64,000 nucleotides of DNA, from the NCBI GenBank assembly GCA_963717935.1, contig CAVQXP010000004.1, positions 1,632,001 through 1,696,000 on the forward strand, read 5' to 3'. Origin of the DNA: Candidatus Eiseniibacteriota bacterium. GTDB taxonomy: Bacteria; Eisenbacteria; RBG-16-71-46. The position numbers were made by a program. Below are positions 15,001-21,000 of this stretch, in pieces (position 1 is the stretch's first letter; each line of letters starts with the position of its first letter).

Positions 15001-18000
15001 CAGTTCGCCTTCGAGAAGGACGCGCTGCACCCGTTCCTGCCGCACAACTTCCCGCACGAACTGCGTGGTCTACACCGGGACCCACGACAACGACACCACG
15101 CGCGGCTGGTACGCGAGCGCGCCCGAGAAGGAGCGCCACTTCGCGCGGTCCTATCTGGGTCGCGGAGGGCAGCGACATCACCTGGGACCTGATCCGCGCC
15201 GGCATGGCCTCGGTGGCCGACACGTTCATCGTGCCGCTGCAGGACGTCCTGGACCTGGGGCCCGAGGCGCGCATGAACCTGCCCGGCCGGCCGGGCGGCA
15301 ACTGGGGCTGGCGTTTCCGGCACGAGCAGGTGACGGACGCCGAGCGCGACCGGCTGCGGGGGCTCGTGGAGACCTACGGGCGATAGCAGACCGCGGAGTT
15401 GGAGGCGCGTGGCCCTCTCCCGGTGTATATTCCCGGATTCCATGACCTTCCACCCGAGGCCCGCCGCATGAATCCAGTCCCCGACTCGCCTGCCCTCCAG
15501 CCGCCCTCCGATCTCAACCCCCGGCACGAGCCGGTGCTCGACTTCCCCGACCGCGAGCTCGGAGAGATGACGCCGGCGGACTACCAGGCTCTGGGCTTCA
15601 TGTCGGGTCTCGAGGTGCACCAGCAGATCGTCACCCGCGGCAAGCTCTTCTGCCGCTGCCCGGCCGGCCGGCGCGTCACCCGCGTGGACGCCGAGGTGCT
15701 GCGTCACATGAGGCCCACGCTCTCCGAGTTGGGCGAGTACGACGGCTGCGCGCTCATGGAGTTCAAGACCCGCAAGGAGATCGTCTACCTGCTCGAGCGG
15801 GGCACGGTCTGCACCTACGAGATCGACGATACGCCGCCCTTCCCCATGGACGACGAGGCCGTGCGCGTGGCGCTCGAGATCGCGCTGCTCTTCGGCCTGA
15901 ACCTGGTCTCCGAGCTGCACGTGATGCGCAAGCAGTACCTGGATGGCTCGATCCCGACGGGCTTCCAGCGCACGGCGATGATGGGGCTCGCCGGGTGCAT
16001 CCCCTTCCGCGTGCCCGAGCTGGGCGTGGACCGCGAGCTGCGCATCCGGCAGTTCTCGCTCGAGGAGGACTCCTGCCGCGAGGTCTCGGACGTCGGGCAC
16101 CGCATCACCTTCCGCACCGACCGGCTGGGGATGCCGCTGATCGAGACGGTGACCGAGCCCGATCTCCTCACGCCCTACGAGGTCGCGGCGGGCGGGCGCC
16201 TCCTCTCCCGCGTGGCGCGGGCTTCGGGCAAGGTGCGTCGCGGGGCGGGCGCGGCGCGTCAGGACACGAACGTCTCGGTCGCGGGCGGCCGGCGCGTCGA
16301 GATCAAGGGCGTGGGCAACCACCGGCACCTGCCGCTGCTCACGCATAACGAGGCCTTCCGGCAGTTGAACCTGCTGCGGGTGCGGGCCGAGCTGCGCAGC
16401 CGCGGGGTGGAGGCGAAGGACCTGGCCGTCCCCGACGGGCCGCGGCCCTGGGAGCGCTCGCCACTCGTCGTGCACGCGGGCCCGATGCTCAGGCGCTGCG
16501 ACTACATGCCGCTGCGCGAGGCGCGCGAGCGCGGCGACACGGTGGTGGCGCTCGCGCTGCCCGGCTTCGGCGGCCTGCTGACGCGGGGCACCCAGCCGGG
16601 CGTGACCTTCGCGCGCGAGTTCGCCGACCGCGTGCGGGTGATCGCGTGCCTCACGGCGCGGCCCTTCATGATCCACTCCGACCTGTCGGACTACGGTCTG
16701 ACCCCGGCCGAATGGCGGTCGCTGCGGAAGAGCCTGCGCGCGGGGCCGTCGGACGCCGTCCTGGTGCTGTGGGGCACCGAGCAGGATGTGGAGACGGCGG
16801 TGCGCGAGGCGTTCCTGCGGGCGCGTGACGCGCTGGTCGGCGTGCCCGCGGAGACGCGGCAGTCCTTCCTGGACGGGACCACCGGATTCGAGCGCATCCT
16901 GCCCGGGGCCGATCGCATGTACCCCGACACCGATACACCCCCGAAGGCCATCCCGGAAGCGTGGGTGGCCGAGATCACCGCGCGCCTGTCCGAGCGCCCC
17001 TGGGAGCGGGAGAAGCGCTACCGCGCCCTCGGGTTCGCCGTGGTGCTGGCGGGCCGGCTGGCCGATGCCACCGAGACCGCGGATCTCTTCGACGCGCTCG
17101 CCGTGCCGGCAGGACCGGCTGCGGCGCGCGTGGCGGGCGCGCTGCTCAAACGTCCTGCGCGCTGGCGCCGCAGGCGGGCGGGCGAATCCCCGGCGAATCC
17201 GGAGCGGTTGAAGCCCCTGGTGGATGCCTTCGTGCAGGGCGAGTTACGGCCGGAGGGCTTCGAGCGCGCGCTCGAGCGCGCGCTGGCCGAGCCGGAACGG
17301 ACGGTGGCGGAGCTGCTCGACAGCGTGCGACCGCGAGCGGGCGATGTCGAAGAGGCCGGGCGGAGCATCGCCGCGGCGGTCGAGCGCTGCCGGGCGCTGC
17401 CGGACCGTCCGCGCGCGAGCCTGGTGCGCTGGGCCATGGGACTGGTGATGCGCGACCTGATCGGGCGCGTGGACCCGCGCGAGGTGCAGGCGCGGCTCGA
17501 GCGAGCGCTCGCGGCCCGGAAGGAGGGGGTGGGGCGATGACGGACGACCGCTACAAGGGCTACCGCGAGCCCTGCCTGTCGGTCCTGAAGCGGTTCGACG
17601 TGACCGTGTGGTGCGAGGTGCGGGCCCGCACCTCGCGCGGCGATTTCGAGGGCCTGCTGCTCCCGCGCTCGGAGACCGCCGACCCGCTCCACCTCGTGCT
17701 CAAGCTCACCACCGGCTACAACGTGGGGCTGCGCCACGACACGGTCACCGGGCTCGAGAAGATCGGCTACCGCGAGGCGCACTACCAGATCCCCGAGCGT
17801 GAGTTCCCGGTGAACCCGGCCATGCCCCGCGTCAAGCTCCTCGGCACGGGTGGTACGATCGCCTCGCGGCTCGACTACCGCACCGGGGCGGTCATCCCCG
17901 CCTTCAGCCCCGGCGAGCTCTACGGCTCGGTGCCCGAGCTCGCCGACATCTGCAACCTCGAGACGGAGAAGCTCTTCGGGGTGTTCTCGGAGAACATGGG

Positions 18001-21000
18001 GCCGGAGCAGTACATCGTGCTGGCGGAGCGGATCGGCGAGGCCATCCGAGACGGCTGGGACGGCGTCGTGGTCGGGCATGGCACCGACACCATGCACCAC
18101 ACGGCCGCGGCGCTCTCGTTCATGGTCCAGCGCTCGCCGGTGCCCGTCATCATGGTGGGCAGCCAGCGTTCCTCGGACCGGCCTTCCTCGGACGCGGCGC
18201 AGAACCTCATCAGCGCGACGTGGGCCGCCGCGCACGGGCCCATCGCCGAAGTCATGGTGTGCATGTTCGGCCCGACGTCTGACCGCTACAACCTGCTGCA
18301 CCGGGGGACGCGCGTGCGCAAGATGCACACCTCCTACCGCAGCACCTTCCGCACGCTGGGGGACATCCCGCTCGCGATGGTCGAGCGCGGGAAGCTCACG
18401 CCGCTCAAGGAGGACTGGGCACCCCGGCGCAAGGACCGGGACGTGACGGTGCAGGCGGTCTTCGAGGAGCGCGTCACGATCGTCTACTACTATCCGAACA
18501 TGAACCCCGACCTGATCGACGCGCTGGTGGAGAAGGGCTACAAGGGGATCGTCATCGCGGGCACGGGCCTGGGGCACGTGAACCGCAAGATCTATCCGGC
18601 CCTCGATCGCGCCCGCAGCGCCGGGGTGCTGATCTTCATGGCCGTGCAGACGCTCTGGGGCTTCGTGCAGATGTACGTCTACGAGACGGGGCGGGAGATC
18701 CTGGAGCTGGGGGTCACTCCGCTCGCGAACATGCTGCCCGAGGTGGCCTACATCAAGCTGGGCTGGGCGCTCGGCGTGCATCCCGACGATCCCGAGGCGG
18801 CGCGGCGGCTCATGGTCACGCCGATCGCGGGCGAGACCACCGAGCGCGAGCCGCACGACGGCTACCTGGTGTTCCAGGGCGGTGTTCCCGAGATCCAGGA
18901 GTTCCTGGGCAAGGTCTGGAAGTGAACCGACGAGGACGGATGACCGCATGAAGCCGACGACGATGGCACCGACCGAAGCGAAACCGGCGCGTGGAGCGGG
19001 AGCGGTGGCTGCCGCGAGTCCCGGGTCCCCGAGCCTGCCCGCCTGTCTGCTCGAACGCCTGATCGGCCGCCCGGCCGCCACCTGGACGGTGGACGACCTG
19101 GTGACGCTCGCCGCCGGGCGCGGCGTGCGTCTCGTGAGCCTCATGCACGTGGGCGGCGACGGCTGGCTCAAGGTCCTGGACTTCGTGCCACGGAGCCGCG
19201 AGCACCTGCGCGACATCCTCTCCGGGGGCGAGCGCGCCGACGGCTCGAGCCTGTTCGCGGGGCTCGGGCCTCGAGGTGGGGGCCTCGGACATCCTGTTGC
19301 GGCCCCGTGTCGAGACCGCGTTCCTCGATCCGTTCGCGGTCCAGCCGACGCTGGTGCTGCTCTGCGGCCACGCGGGGCGCGACGGCGCGCCGCCTGCCGC
19401 AGTCACCCGACACCATCGTGCGCCAGGCCGGCGAGCGGCTGGTGCGCGAGCTGGGCGTCGAGTTGCACGCGCTGGGCGAGGTCGAGTACTTCCTCGGCCG
19501 GCGCGCGGGCGAGGAGGATGTCTACGGCGCGAACGACCGGGGCTACCACGCCACGTCGCCGTTCGTCTTCGGCGAGGCGCTGCGGCGCGAGGCCATGGCC
19601 CTGCTGGCCGAGATCGGCGTGCCCGGTCAAGTACGGGCACAGCGAGGTGGGCTACGTCCAGGCCACCGAGGCGGACGGGCTCATCTGGGAGCAGCACGAG
19701 ATCGAACTGGGACTCGCTCCGCTGCGCGGCCGCCGCCGACGCGGTGGTGCTCACCCAGTGGGTGCTGCGCAACCTCGCGCACCGGCAGGGCATGCGCTGC
19801 AGCTTCGATCCCATCCTGCGACGCGGCCACGCCGGCACGGGCCTGCACTTCCACTTCTCGCCGGTCCGCGACGGGGAGCACCTCGGCGGGCGCGGCGCGG
19901 ACGGGAGCGCTGAGCCCGCCGGCGCAGTGGCTCATCGCGCGGGCTGGTGCGCATGGGCGGGGCGCTCATGGCGTTCGGCAACCGCACCGAGGGCTCGCTC
20001 ATCCGCCTGACCCAGGCCAAGGAGGCGCCCAACGCCATCGTCTGGGGCGAGTTCGACCGCAGCGCGCTGGTGCGGCTGCCGATCGTGGCGCGCACCGAGG
20101 ACGGCCGGCCGGTGAGCCCGCCGACCATCGAGTTCCGGCTGCCCGACGGCTCGGCCCACCCGCACCTGCTGCTCGCGGGCGTGGCGCAGGTGATGGTCGA
20201 GGCGACGGGCGAGCGCGGACGTCGAGGCGCTGCTCGAGCGCACGTCGGTGACGGCGCTCAAGCGCGGAGCGGGGACGGTCGACACCCGTGCCGACACGGT
20301 TCCTCGAGGTGGCGGAGGCGCTGACGGCCAGCCGCGCCGCGCTCGAAGCGGGCGGGGTCTTCCCGCCGGTGCTCCTCGACCGGCTGATCGAGCGCCTGCG
20401 GGCGTAGCGCGCCCGCTCAGGCGGTGGTCGCCAGCGCCTCGTCGATGGTCGTGCAGTCCACCAGCCCGCTGCAGCCGTAGAGCACGGGCAGCAGCTTCTC
20501 CGGCGGATGATGGCGCCGCAGCTCGGCGACGAGATCGGTCCCCGCGCGGTAGCACGGCAGGTACATGCGCCCCATCAGCGGGTGCCTGCCCCAGGCGCCG
20601 GCGAACTTCTTCGCCCGCTCCTCGGAGACCAGGAAGTCGCGCCGCAGCACCGGCGCCACGTCCGCCTCGGCCGCGCGCTCCTGCCAGGTGAGGTACGAGG
20701 CCTGGTTCTTGGCGTCGTCCTGCAGCAGCGCCAGCAGCAGCCCGATCTTCAGGTCGTCGTCGGGGATCTGGTCCAGCTCGGTCACGCCGTGAGCGATGAG
20801 GATGGCGTTGTTGGCGATGCCCTCGAAGAGCGTGGCCGCGCGGGTGTTCATGGTGAGCACCGAGGCCTCGAAGCCCACCTGGCCGCGCCAGTAGAGGTCC
20901 TGCAGGAAGGCGAAGGTGGTGACGTGGCCGGGCACGACCTCGTGCGAGACGAGCTGCTCGAACTCCGGCACCGTGATCTGGAGCGACGCGTTGATCTCGT

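Follow-up and report, generated by a model that had tools for sequence, protein, structure and literature searches.

Within the 64,000-nucleotide stretch of DNA analysed here (the window), a gatE-gatD pair was found that we believe, with a probability of roughly 0.55 and judging from sequence, to encode an active, heterodimeric, ATP-dependent GatDE-type aminoacyl-tRNA amidotransferase, derived from Asgard archaea and re-fitted to convert Glu-tRNAGln into Gln-tRNAGln beside GlnRS. An enzyme called archaea-only in textbooks also sits in a widespread bacterial lineage. On the model of its archaeal homologue, we propose that GatD would hydrolyse glutamine or asparagine and hand the ammonia to GatE, which would phosphorylate the side-chain carboxyl of the mischarged aminoacyl-tRNA and then amidate it. 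The substrate may come from a GluRS whose rejection of tRNAGln is incomplete and which so makes Glu-tRNAGln; GatDE would turn this into Gln-tRNAGln alongside GlnRS, and it and the Glu-AdT activity of GatCAB could replace each other. The analysis documents intact genes, family assignment, phylogeny, co-occurrence counts and changed motifs; the activity, the substrate and the non-discriminating GluRS of this model are those that we infer.

The gene gatE (15468..17540, + strand; ATG start at 15468, stop at 17540) encodes a predicted kinase/transamidase subunit of 690 aa with a cradle domain, an AspRS-like insertion domain and a YqeY-like tail, and gatD (17537..18925, + strand; ATG start at 17537, stop at 18925) a predicted asparaginase-type glutaminase subunit of 462 aa. 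The last four bases of gatE, ATGA (17537..17540, + strand), are also the first four of gatD, suggesting translational coupling, and this 4-base overlap recurs in 57 of the 102 bacterial-clade loci with gatE directly upstream. Both genes are intact, with third-position G+C of 0.9-0.99 and one uninterrupted frame each. GatD matched the Pfam domains GatD_N, Asparaginase and Asparaginase_C, scored 485.9 bits against NCBIfam TIGR02153 (cut-off 324) and 362 bits against the type I L-asparaginase model TIGR00519 (cut-off 260.5), and had 1zq1_A as its best solved structure (E 9e-114). GatE matched GatB_N (6e-40) and, weakly, GAD and GatB_Yqey; it scored 391.1 bits against TIGR00134 (cut-off 319.55) and 451.3 bits against NF003107, slightly below the cut-off of 456, and aligned best with 1zq1_C (E 2e-88) over residues 38-680, relative to which it carries a 37-residue N-terminal extension. 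On these equivalog scores and full-length alignments to solved GatDE, the pair is assigned to GatE/GatD, in agreement with the gatE-gatD operon reported in the initial annotation.

Archaeal GatDE (Methanothermobacter thermautotrophicus, PDB 2D6F with tRNAGln; Pyrococcus abyssi, PDB 1ZQ1) has both subunits, the domain order, the catalytic motifs and the GatE-type short basic loop in common with the window pair. Bacterial GatCAB carries out the same net reaction with mischarged tRNA as substrate, and GatB and GatE share cradle and tail domains; however, the glutaminase of GatCAB is the amidase GatA, which is not related to GatD, the complex has a GatC subunit, and GatE reached 133 bits against GatB models, far under the cut-off of 338. 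Type I L-asparaginase shares the core fold of GatD but differs in that GatD has GatD_N as an additional domain and an obligate gatE partner whose gene overlaps its own; the nearest free-standing asparaginase examined (L170) was 27.6% identical to GatD.

The pair lies mid-contig in a 2.14-Mb contig, matches the genome of its 72% G+C, Eisenbacteria-like host in G+C (72%) and codon bias, and has the bacterial neighbours MalQ, peptidase S46 and GlnRS; its relatives occur in complete bacterial chromosomes. That archaeal DNA was mis-binned into a bacterial genome, as the binning problems of two records among the relatives (L196 and L120) might suggest, is thus hardly credible, and for this window the contig context rules it out. 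The host also encodes, as initially stated, GlnRS, AsnRS and GatCAB components, and two GluRS besides: glnS (~61226..63063, + strand; PF00749, 345.8 bits) with a frame break near the C-terminus in the assembly, one frame-broken GluRS gene (~63108..64000, + strand, extending past the window), a second GluRS gene (C4:28183-29863), gatA and gatB (C4:1961771-1963931), AsnRS (445 bits) and a single AspRS gene. GlnRS, both GluRS, gatA and gatB are each broken across reading frames in the assembly. Directly after the window end, past GlnRS and GluRS, lie tRNAGln(CUG) and tRNAGlu(CUC). In the host, a U1-A72 first pair is limited to its two tRNAGln and to tRNAAsn, each of which also has G73; tRNATrp begins with A1-U72, and the host tRNA set included no unusual tRNA of A1-U72 tRNAGln-like design. 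The two GluRS genes, one adjoining GlnRS and these two tRNA genes, and the restricted occurrence of U1-A72 speak for the proposed Glu-tRNAGln route; against it stands the U1-A72 pair of the host tRNAGln, as archaeal GatDE, in the accessible part of the published work, reads A1-U72.

In the careful tree, the bacterial sequences formed one clade (support 100/100), which grouped with Loki/Hermod sequences (95/92) and, more widely, with Asgard sequences and one Bathyarchaeia row (100/99); quick GatD and GatE trees agreed. The bacterial clade is nested within Asgard GatD, and the Asgard enzymes (Promethearchaeota, Hermodarchaeota, Jordarchaeia, Odinarchaeota and Hodarchaeota; L132-L150, L203-L249), which are sister to it or placed around it, are the closest relatives. 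The order gatE-then-gatD occurred in 20 of 21 Loki/Jord/Hod/Hermod/Odin/Frey loci, whereas the 79 loci of other archaea included 35 with gatD-then-gatE and four with gatE-then-gatD; the window order is thus like that of some Asgard archaea and unlike that of most archaea. Trees and gene order indicate that the bacterial lineage derives from Asgard archaea. The pair may have entered bacteria once, from a Loki/Hermod-like group, retaining its gene order, and may then have spread across bacterial phyla, which are intermixed in the gene tree on short end branches, as a self-contained two-gene accessory unit. The Asgard origin, the gene order shared with Asgard loci and the lack of GatCAB in about half of the carriers had been missed initially. 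The binning problems show in two records of the trees: L196 carries a Bacteroidaceae label but branches with Methanobrevibacter, and L120 carries a Thermoplasmata label but is placed with the bacterial clade.

The initial annotation posited a large bacterial clade, and the search bore this out, with 592 of 599 candidate stretches confirmed, i.e. at least 592 loci. Its view that GatDE is better conserved across bacterial phyla than towards archaea held for the bacterial side, the best 80 of the at least 592 confirmed stretches all being bacterial records with 67-97% identity, but the 48% given for archaea applies to Thermococcus only, GatD identity to the window being 50-54% for Asgard and 38-49% for other archaea. 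Carriers include a cultured isolate (Oceanirhabdus sp. W0125-5) as well as complete chromosomes, one of which has two copies. In all 18 genome pairs compared, GatD was more similar to the window sequence than GlnRS was (median identity 70% vs 60%). Upstream placement of gatE, also claimed before, was direct in 102 of 128 bacterial-clade loci, with flanks too short to judge in 17 more. No other neighbour was conserved, again as claimed, the best cluster covering 10 of 128 loci, and 60 loci yielded eight assorted tRNA genes, none for tRNAGln and none dedicated to the module, so that GatDE must work with housekeeping partners; this absence of a special tRNA or partner fits the proposed model. Presence is patchy, and the earlier counts of 23/205 for the phylum and 3/7 for the genus became, with a different model, 27 of 206 Eisenbacteria genomes (host included) and four of seven other members of the host's genus with GatD above the cut-off, which marks the gene as dispensable and counts against the model. 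Our literature search, like the earlier one, found no paper on bacterial GatDE, which is still described as archaea-only by a paper of 2009 and by a review of 2022.

Among 100 GatDE-bearing bacterial genomes, GlnRS was above the cut-off in 85 and GatB in only 46; AsnRS was above it in 48 of 50 carriers tested. The co-existence with GlnRS proposed earlier was thus confirmed, but the step from it to a specialised or new amidation fails. GatCAB does likewise in sister genomes, GlnRS being found in four and AsnRS in five of five GatDE-less, GatCAB-bearing Gemmatimonadota genomes with multi-Mb contigs, and the accessible part of PMC4206432 reports GatCAB beside GlnRS and AsnRS in Deinococcus, Thermus and Bdellovibrio; co-existence with GlnRS is therefore not special to GatDE. 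Furthermore, in 201 sampled Gemmatimonadota, GatB occurred in 5 of 12 GatD-positive and 150 of 189 GatD-negative genomes (odds ratio 0.19, p 0.007 by Fisher's test; leaving out three unpublished genomes turns the second count into 147/186), a depletion that rests on 12 related, non-independent GatD-positive genomes. The rarity of GatB in carriers points to an overlap with the role of GatCAB rather than to an unrelated job, and the two enzymes appear partly interchangeable. Among the 53 GatDE-only genomes, five were without GlnRS: two lacked GluRS as well and are thus incomplete, two had truncated class-I fragments at contig ends and one was a MAG. There was no clear case among these 53 of GatDE as the sole route to Gln-tRNAGln, and two complete GlnRS-less chromosomes (G037 and G090) retain GatB, both of which count against the proposed model.

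The chemistry of the enzyme appears retained. GatD carries GTGGTIAS (aa 103-110; 17843..17866, + strand), the first Thr motif of the asparaginase fold, whose catalytic role we take to be that of the asparaginase family and whose GGTI columns were invariant in 17 archaeal-type representatives, and HGTDTM (aa 181-186; 18077..18094, + strand), the second Thr-Asp motif; both had been listed in the initial annotation. Of the columns at least 95% invariant in archaea, 62 of 65 in GatD and 73 of 88 in GatE are conserved in 90% or more of the bacterial clade. The GatE motif LEEDSCR (aa 198-204; 16059..16079, + strand) corresponds to archaeal EEDAAR, an active-site-proximal change; its Cys column has Cys in 97% of the bacterial clade and Ala in 93% of archaea.

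Three tRNA-facing elements of GatE set the bacterial clade apart from all archaeal groups. The short basic loop GKVRRGAGAARQD (aa 254-266; 16227..16265, + strand) takes the place of the GatB 3-10 turn, where GatB has two extra residues and GatE no GatB-type insertion; in the accessible part of PMC2811023, this site adjoins tRNA base pair 1:72, and the GatB turn is described as reading U1-A72. The archaeal loop is GTIRQD; directly ahead of RQD, 54 of 75 bacterial-clade sequences have AA, and 55 of 58 sequences from archaea have TI or SI. The insertion-domain segment around MIHSDL (aa ~392-406; 16641..16685, + strand) carries three inserted residues specific to the clade and no longer has the Glu of H-x-D-E that is invariant in archaea. 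In the tail segment PRASLVRWAMGLVM (aa 648-661; 17409..17450, + strand), a basic patch replaces archaeal GXXAXGX, the three columns reading P 30/75, R or K 38/75 and R 49/75 in the bacterial clade, against G 12/18, A 16/18 and G 8/18 in Asgard and G 23/40, A 33/40 and G 25/40 in other archaea. According to PMC2811023, this archaeal motif has been linked to the discrimination between Glu-tRNAGln and Asp-tRNAAsn, and the GatB tail motif is Lys-rich; the absence of GXXAXGX from the bacterial clade counts against the proposed model. Asgard enzymes retain the archaeal loop (TI or SI), insertion-domain motif and tail motif, and the archaeal enzymes differ further from the window pair in that the host of the latter is bacterial, with U1-A72 tRNAGln, GlnRS and bacterial-type GluRS. 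The tRNA-facing parts may thus have been remodelled on the bacterial-clade stem, a putative re-fit from archaeal A1-U72 tRNAGln to bacterial U1-A72 tRNA.

Because these elements differ from all archaeal sequences, a changed tRNA specificity is conceivable. Re-targeting to a new substrate, as initially proposed, such as another aminoacyl-tRNA or a tRNA-like acceptor, or a role confined to certain conditions, such as charging when glutamine is scarce and asparagine donates the amide, would also suit the near-fixed EEDSCR, the near-constant presence of GlnRS and AsnRS in carriers and the strong conservation of GatD relative to GlnRS; it nevertheless seems unlikely, as the catalytic columns are kept, the module travels without a special tRNA or partner, the host lacks an unusual tRNA of A1-U72 tRNAGln-like design, GatCAB co-exists with both synthetases likewise, and its depletion argues for a common role. 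A gain of Asp-tRNAAsn amidotransferase activity, alone or beside Glu-AdT, that supplies Asn-tRNAAsn or asparagine like Deinococcus/Thermus GatCAB, is rather less likely still. The basic tail patch, the U1-A72 and G73 that host tRNAAsn shares with tRNAGln, and the seeming substitution of GatDE for dual-specific GatCAB would fit it, as would the 14 of 50 GatDE-only genomes, including complete chromosome G097, that match neither the AsnB family nor AsnA, but AsnA or AsnB was found in the other 36, AsnRS is nearly universal in carriers, the host has one AspRS, and the archaeal enzyme is, in the accessible literature, specific for Glu-tRNAGln. Moreover, AsnB was lacking in 26 of 150 GatCAB-only, 0 of 7 GatDE-only, 1 of 5 double-positive and 14 of 39 Gemmatimonadota with neither amidotransferase; a role in asparagine synthesis found no support in this sample, as genomes with an amidotransferase lacked AsnB no more often than those that have none.

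Finally, GatDE might be a passenger acquired by horizontal transfer, nearly neutral or in decay, that plays no part in the host at present, a view to which the patchy distribution, the mixing of phyla in the gene tree and the GlnRS, AsnRS and gatA/gatB already present would be congenial, together with a subclade (L112, L117) in which archaeal-invariant residues were lost, RQD becoming RFD and HSD becoming A/V-SD. This is quite improbable in view of the integrity of both genes amid many neighbours that are frame-broken in the assembly, the invariant columns kept, the short end branches and high cross-phylum identity, the two copies in one complete genome and the number of confirmed loci. The proposed amidotransferase is favoured by its intact, coupled genes and by the retained GatE-type loop, the trees and the gene order.

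The open reading frames of gatE (positions 15468-17540 of the window, + strand, 690 aa) and gatD (17537-18925, + strand, 462 aa) are joined by a 4-base overlap (ATGA), and third-position G+C content was 0.9-0.99 in a single frame along each gene. GatD showed the Pfam domain order GatD_N, asparaginase N-terminal and asparaginase C-terminal (PF18195, 37.7 bits against a cut-off of 25.7; PF00710, 190.5 bits; PF17763, 102.3 bits), scored above the curated equivalog cut-offs of TIGR02153 (485.9 versus 324 bits) and NF003217 (479 versus 310 bits), and matched the Pyrococcus GatD chain 1zq1_A with an E-value of 9e-114. 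The asparaginase-type Thr, Thr-Asp and Lys motifs (GTGGTIAS, HGTDTM and RKMHTS), which we take to hold the catalytic residues as in the asparaginase family, are all kept. A further trait of the GatD family is a glutaminase activity dependent on both GatE and Glu-tRNAGln. GatE scored 391.1 bits with TIGR00134 (cut-off 319.55) and slightly below the cut-off of NF003107 (451.3 versus 456 bits), and its residues 38-680 aligned continuously with the Pyrococcus GatE chain 1zq1_C (E 2e-88). The protein has a cradle domain, an AspRS-like insertion domain and a YqeY-like tail; its GatB_N match (residues 46-500) is broken by a GAD-like stretch (351-444; 22 bits, cut-off 23.4), and a GatB_Yqey match (19.3 bits) covers residues 571-681. 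Its assignment as a GatB was rejected, as the best GatB model gave 133 versus 338 bits, the 3-10 insertion is absent and a separate gatB lies elsewhere in the genome. The open reading frames, family scores and structure alignments thus confirmed the gatE-gatD pair reported in the initial annotation. The scan of window positions 15100-19400 for sigma-70 promoters and intrinsic terminators, which is uninformative at 72% G+C, returned no site of either kind.

Residue conservation was counted in alignments of 220 (GatD) and 133 (GatE) rows over columns whose residue is invariant among archaea to at least 95%; for these counts, as for those of neighbours and gene order, the bacterial-type clade was defined by at least 56% identity to the window GatD, a definition matching the clade in the tree. 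At 62 of 65 GatD columns and 73 of 88 GatE columns, 90% or more of the bacterial clade has the archaeal-invariant residue, showing that the catalytic apparatus is under constraint. The short basic loop GKVRRG, replacing the 3-10 turn of GatB and two residues shorter there than the GatB chains, is also kept in GatE; this short positively charged loop has been set against the GatB 3-10 turn, which reads U1-A72 (PMC2811023). Recognition of the A1-U72 pair and of the tRNAGln D-loop, together with Glu-tRNAGln specificity, is a trait of the GatE family, whereas both tRNAGln genes and the tRNAAsn gene of the host have U1-A72 and G73. No archaeal-like tRNAGln with A1-U72 was found among the host tRNAs, the sole A1-U72 tRNA being tRNATrp.

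Three tRNA-facing elements of GatE in the bacterial clade differed from those of every archaeal group, Asgard archaea included. Immediately ahead of the invariant RQD in the loop adjoining the first base pair (1:72), 55 of 58 archaeal sequences have TI or SI and 54 of 75 bacterial sequences have AA, with intermediate forms such as SV in early-branching members of the bacterial clade. The AspRS-like insertion domain carries a 3-residue insertion throughout the clade and has lost the archaeal-invariant Glu of H-x-D-E. In the tail, the motif GXXAXGX, which replaces GatB's Lys-rich motif and has been implicated in the choice between Glu-tRNAGln and Asp-tRNAAsn (PMC2811023), was not found in the window GatE, which reads R-A-S-L-V-R-W at those columns. 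GatE of the bacterial clade reads P-[DE]-x-[RK]-x-R-W there; the three motif columns hold P in 30, R or K in 38 and R in 49 of 75 bacterial rows, versus G, A and G in 12, 16 and 8 of 18 Asgard rows and in 23, 33 and 25 of 40 rows of other archaea. Near the active site, EEDAAR is changed to EEDSCR, with the Cys present in 97% of the bacterial clade. These changes arose along the bacterial clade's stem, and they fit a re-fitting of GatE to bacterial tRNA, though without pointing to a particular tRNA; the clade may offer a natural experiment in which a tRNA-recognising enzyme was re-fitted from A1-U72 to U1-A72. A long-branched GatE subclade comprising L112 and L117 (loci of Kapaibacterium and of a MAG labelled Hyphomicrobiales) has RFD for RQD and A/V-SD for HSD, and this loss of archaeal-invariant residues may reflect decay or further functional change.

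GatDE has been described as occurring "exclusively in archaea" (PMC2811023, 2009), and textbooks and reviews treat it as an archaea-only enzyme and draw on it in arguments on LUCA and on archaea never adopting GlnRS (PMC9499178; PMC2811023). A scan for GatD with one genome per species yielded 599 candidate stretches, of which at least 592 were confirmed, and the best 80 of these at least 592 were all bacterial records with 67-97% identity, including the complete chromosomes OY970178.1, CP070722.1, OZ245006.1 and OY820579.1. The second scan, whose query was a cluster representative of 49% identity, added further bacteria, including the cultured Clostridia isolate Oceanirhabdus sp. W0125-5, along with Asgard archaea whose GatD was 50-54% identical to that of the window. 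A third query, built from aligned archaeal-type representatives, added 80 loci, 78 of them labelled archaeal. GatDE was thus not restricted to archaea, as complete bacterial chromosomes and a cultured isolate are among its carriers, and the latter opens the way to bench testing. The distribution of GatDE inside phyla is patchy: among Eisenbacteria, the host's own phylum, 27 of 206 genomes (23 of the 121 of high quality) had a GatD above the cut-off, as did 4 of the 7 others in the host's genus and 12 of 201 sampled Gemmatimonadota. The complete Gemmatimonadota chromosome CP070722.1 (genome G002) carries two gatE-gatD copies (L014 and L169), whose GatD are 82% and 81% identical to that of the window, along with GatB, GlnRS, AsnRS and two GluRS.

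Our literature search found no paper treating bacterial GatDE; subscription journals and supplementary files, which may hold taxon lists, were outside its scope. The available text of a study on a GatD indel does not take up bacterial GatDE (PMC3056875). Annotation pipelines already label such genes, so that informal awareness of bacterial GatDE is likely.

The set for the GatD tree comprised 219 sequences past the coverage filters, thinned by identity to 111, to which the window GatD and one asparaginase outgroup were added. In a quick tree, 42 bacterial rows and one "Thermoplasmata" MAG formed one clade (SH-aLRT 100) nested in an Asgard clade (support 100). In a more careful tree under a mixture model with 66 hand-picked rows, support was 100/100 for the bacterial clade, 95/92 for its grouping with Loki/Hermod-type Asgard archaea and 100/99 for bacteria, Asgard archaea and one Bathyarchaeia row together, and none of 200 bootstrap trees united the Asgard rows in one clan. 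The unrooted GatE tree (58 rows) agreed, with the bacteria as one clan (100) next to the Asgard clade and that Bathyarchaeia row. The link between bacteria and Asgard archaea was further supported by their common gene order, gatE then gatD, which was found in 102 of 128 bacterial-clade loci (the others having short flanks in 17 cases, gatE elsewhere in the locus in 7 and no gatE despite ample flanks in 2) and in 20 of 21 Loki, Jord, Hod, Hermod, Odin and Frey loci. The order was gatD then gatE in all three Heimdall and Thor loci; among 79 loci of other archaea, 35 had gatD then gatE, 4 had gatE then gatD and the remainder had no order assignment.

Inside the bacterial clade, phyla were interleaved, with Planctomycetota, for example, at several places. 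In each of 18 genome pairs, GatD was more similar to that of the window (65-83% identity, median 70) than GlnRS was (52-62%, median 60). Identity was lower for GatE (median 48%). We infer that GatDE was transferred once from an Asgard archaeon to bacteria and then spread between phyla, the direction of transfer resting on the asparaginase and crenarchaeal rootings. A large, conserved and apparently Asgard-derived bacterial clade undoes the archaea-only premise, and bacterial GatDE would be a clean example of a translation-related enzyme moving from archaea to bacteria.

L149, from a Bathyarchaeia MAG, is a single non-Asgard archaeal locus that joined the clade of Asgard archaea and bacteria in both trees; the EEDSCRE motif of the bacteria is shared by its GatE, and gatE lies upstream of gatD on the opposite strand. 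L120 and L121, on MAG contigs labelled Thermoplasmata, encode bacterial-clade GatD (63% identity) with no gatE seen beside it, the upstream flank being nearly nil in L121, and the Bacteroidaceae-labelled L196 holds a Methanobrevibacter-type gatD-gatE. All three are likely to be binning errors, a transfer back to archaea being the alternative for L120 and L121.

The window lies in a 2.14-Mb contig (C4) of a 3.0-Mb genome that is 72% G+C and 93% complete, and among the matches listed the nearest GatD (97% identity) is from a complete Candidatus Eisenbacteria chromosome. GlnRS lies at about 61226-63063 of the window and is followed by a first GluRS starting at about 63108, directly 3' of which a tRNAGln(CUG)-tRNAGlu(CUC) pair was found at C4 positions 1696657-1696932, 657-932 bases beyond the window end. 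The tRNAGlu(CUC) opens with an unusual G1.U72 pair and carries A73, and the tRNAGln(CUG) has C3-G70 versus G3-C70 in the UUG isoacceptor. A second GluRS is encoded at C4:28183-29863 and gatA and gatB at C4:1961771-1963931, and the host also has AsnRS (445 bits) and one AspRS. GlnRS, both GluRS, gatA and gatB are split between frames, as are the peptidase S46, MalQ and glutamine synthetase fragments neighbouring gatE-gatD (window 11562-15386, 19276-20300 and 61226-64000, in addition to the two C4 regions), while gatE, gatD and several other long open reading frames are uninterrupted. The one frame break inspected is surrounded by G/C runs, suggesting that these splits are likely assembly indel errors rather than gene decay, though those in gatCAB may be real decay.

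Co-occurrence was assessed in 100 carrier genomes, of which 50 came from the best-80 loci, picked for spread, and 50 were added subsequently (the remaining 29 distinct genomes of the best 80 and 21 bacterial loci of the second scan). GlnRS exceeded the cut-off in 45 and 40 genomes of these two sets of 50, with large fragments in five more, GatB in 26 and 20, with fragments in one more, and AsnRS in 48 of the first 50. GatDE was therefore the only tRNA-dependent amidotransferase in about 53 of the 100 carriers, including the complete genomes G085 (Oceanirhabdus) and G097, and nearly all of these have GlnRS. The five of the 53 in which GlnRS was missing included two also lacking GluRS, and thus incomplete, two in which truncated fragments of a class-I synthetase sit at contig ends and one remaining MAG; no genome among the 53 was thus secure as having GatDE for its only route to Gln-tRNAGln. 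The complete GlnRS-less chromosomes G037 and G090 both keep GatB, and G090 lacks AsnRS as well. A survey published in 2014 and covering 366 bacterial genomes, whose available text makes no mention of GatDE, takes absence of gatCAB for proof of a defunct indirect pathway (PMC3927822), a rule by which roughly half of the carriers in this analysis would be misread.

The initial annotation held that GatDE, because it co-exists with GlnRS, serves a specialised or new tRNA-dependent amidation. Its facts stand, but this step does not hold, since canonical GatCAB is found equally beside GlnRS and AsnRS in sister genomes: among five Gemmatimonadota that have GatCAB but no GatDE, all with multi-Mb contigs, GlnRS was present in four and AsnRS in all five, and GatCAB likewise co-exists with both synthetases in Deinococcus, Thermus and Bdellovibrio (PMC4206432). 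In the Gemmatimonadota sample (n = 201), GatB was present in 5 of 12 GatD-positive versus 150 of 189 GatD-negative genomes (Fisher odds ratio 0.19, p = 0.007, which overstates the depletion because related genomes are not independent); this tally includes the unpublished genomes G252, G276 and G154, all GatD-negative and GatB-positive, without which the latter count is 147 of 186 (p = 0.007). The depletion of GatCAB in GatDE carriers suggests overlapping roles of GatDE and GatCAB.

Considering these results, we propose that a working GatDE-type amidotransferase would now serve bacterial Glu-tRNAGln beside GlnRS, and we predict this role for the window GatDE with a probability of roughly 0.55. 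A changed specificity, either dual Glu/Asp or something new, is possible because the tail, loop and insertion domain are remodelled, but unlikely even over all its forms. Its fullest version, which builds on the loss of the tail motif excluding Asp-tRNAAsn and on the altered first-pair loop and insertion domain, is doubtful: after the Asgard transfer, GatDE would have been re-engineered to a tRNA specificity other than that of its archaeal parent, dual Glu/Asp or with a non-tRNAGln substrate, and would act as a portable two-gene module allowing GatCAB to be discarded. If this were true, indirect aminoacylation would be mis-annotated in more than 1% of bacterial species, and GatDE would be neither archaea-specific nor Gln-specific. 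The gene neighbourhood provided no dedicated partner: among 60 loci, eight assorted tRNAs and no tRNAGln lay beside gatE-gatD, the best neighbour cluster among 128 loci was found in only 10, all of a single lineage, and the downstream glutamine synthetase fragments, considered as a conserved partner, were not conserved at other loci.

A role of GatDE in asparagine supply is retained as a minor rival to this predicted Glu-tRNAGln role, because 14 of 50 GatDE-only genomes, including the complete G097, have neither an AsnB-family nor an AsnA match, although the other 36 have one or the other. In the Gemmatimonadota sample, AsnB was lacking in 26 of 150 GatCAB-only genomes, 0 of 7 GatDE-only genomes, 1 of 5 genomes with both and 14 of 39 with neither. 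AsnB was thus not missing more often in genomes with an amidotransferase, giving no support for a role in asparagine biosynthesis, and no sign of GatDE or GatCAB making up for an absent asparagine synthetase was seen in this sample.

GluRS lacked model positions 97-142, presumably a zinc-binding subdomain, in frame in 12 carriers (G007, G008, G014, G015, G016, G023, G030, G032, G034, G035, G039 and G045), 10 of which are GatDE-only. Lineage (Aminicenantes and one Gemmatimonadales group) may account for this pattern, or it may be tied to tRNA discrimination; the rule based on Thermus Arg358 for discriminating versus non-discriminating GluRS (PMC2978374) is phylum-specific (PMC3927822). A GatB-tail (YqeY-like) match follows GlnRS in the same open frame in eight carriers (G005, G011, G012, G021, G024, G051, G055 and G062), which therefore have the Deinococcus-type fused GlnRS. 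Among the Aragorn calls on host contigs C1, C2 and C4 were two tRNA-SeC and several tRNAs that are too long or lack CCA (Arg-CCG, 87 and 97 nt; Trp, 88 nt; Ala-CGC, 86 nt), and these odd calls in G+C-rich DNA look mostly false. At window positions 8125-10440 (- strand), a single 771-aa open reading frame matches PTA_PTB at residues 36-369 and acetate kinase at residues 560-722, and is either a fusion or a read-through of two genes.
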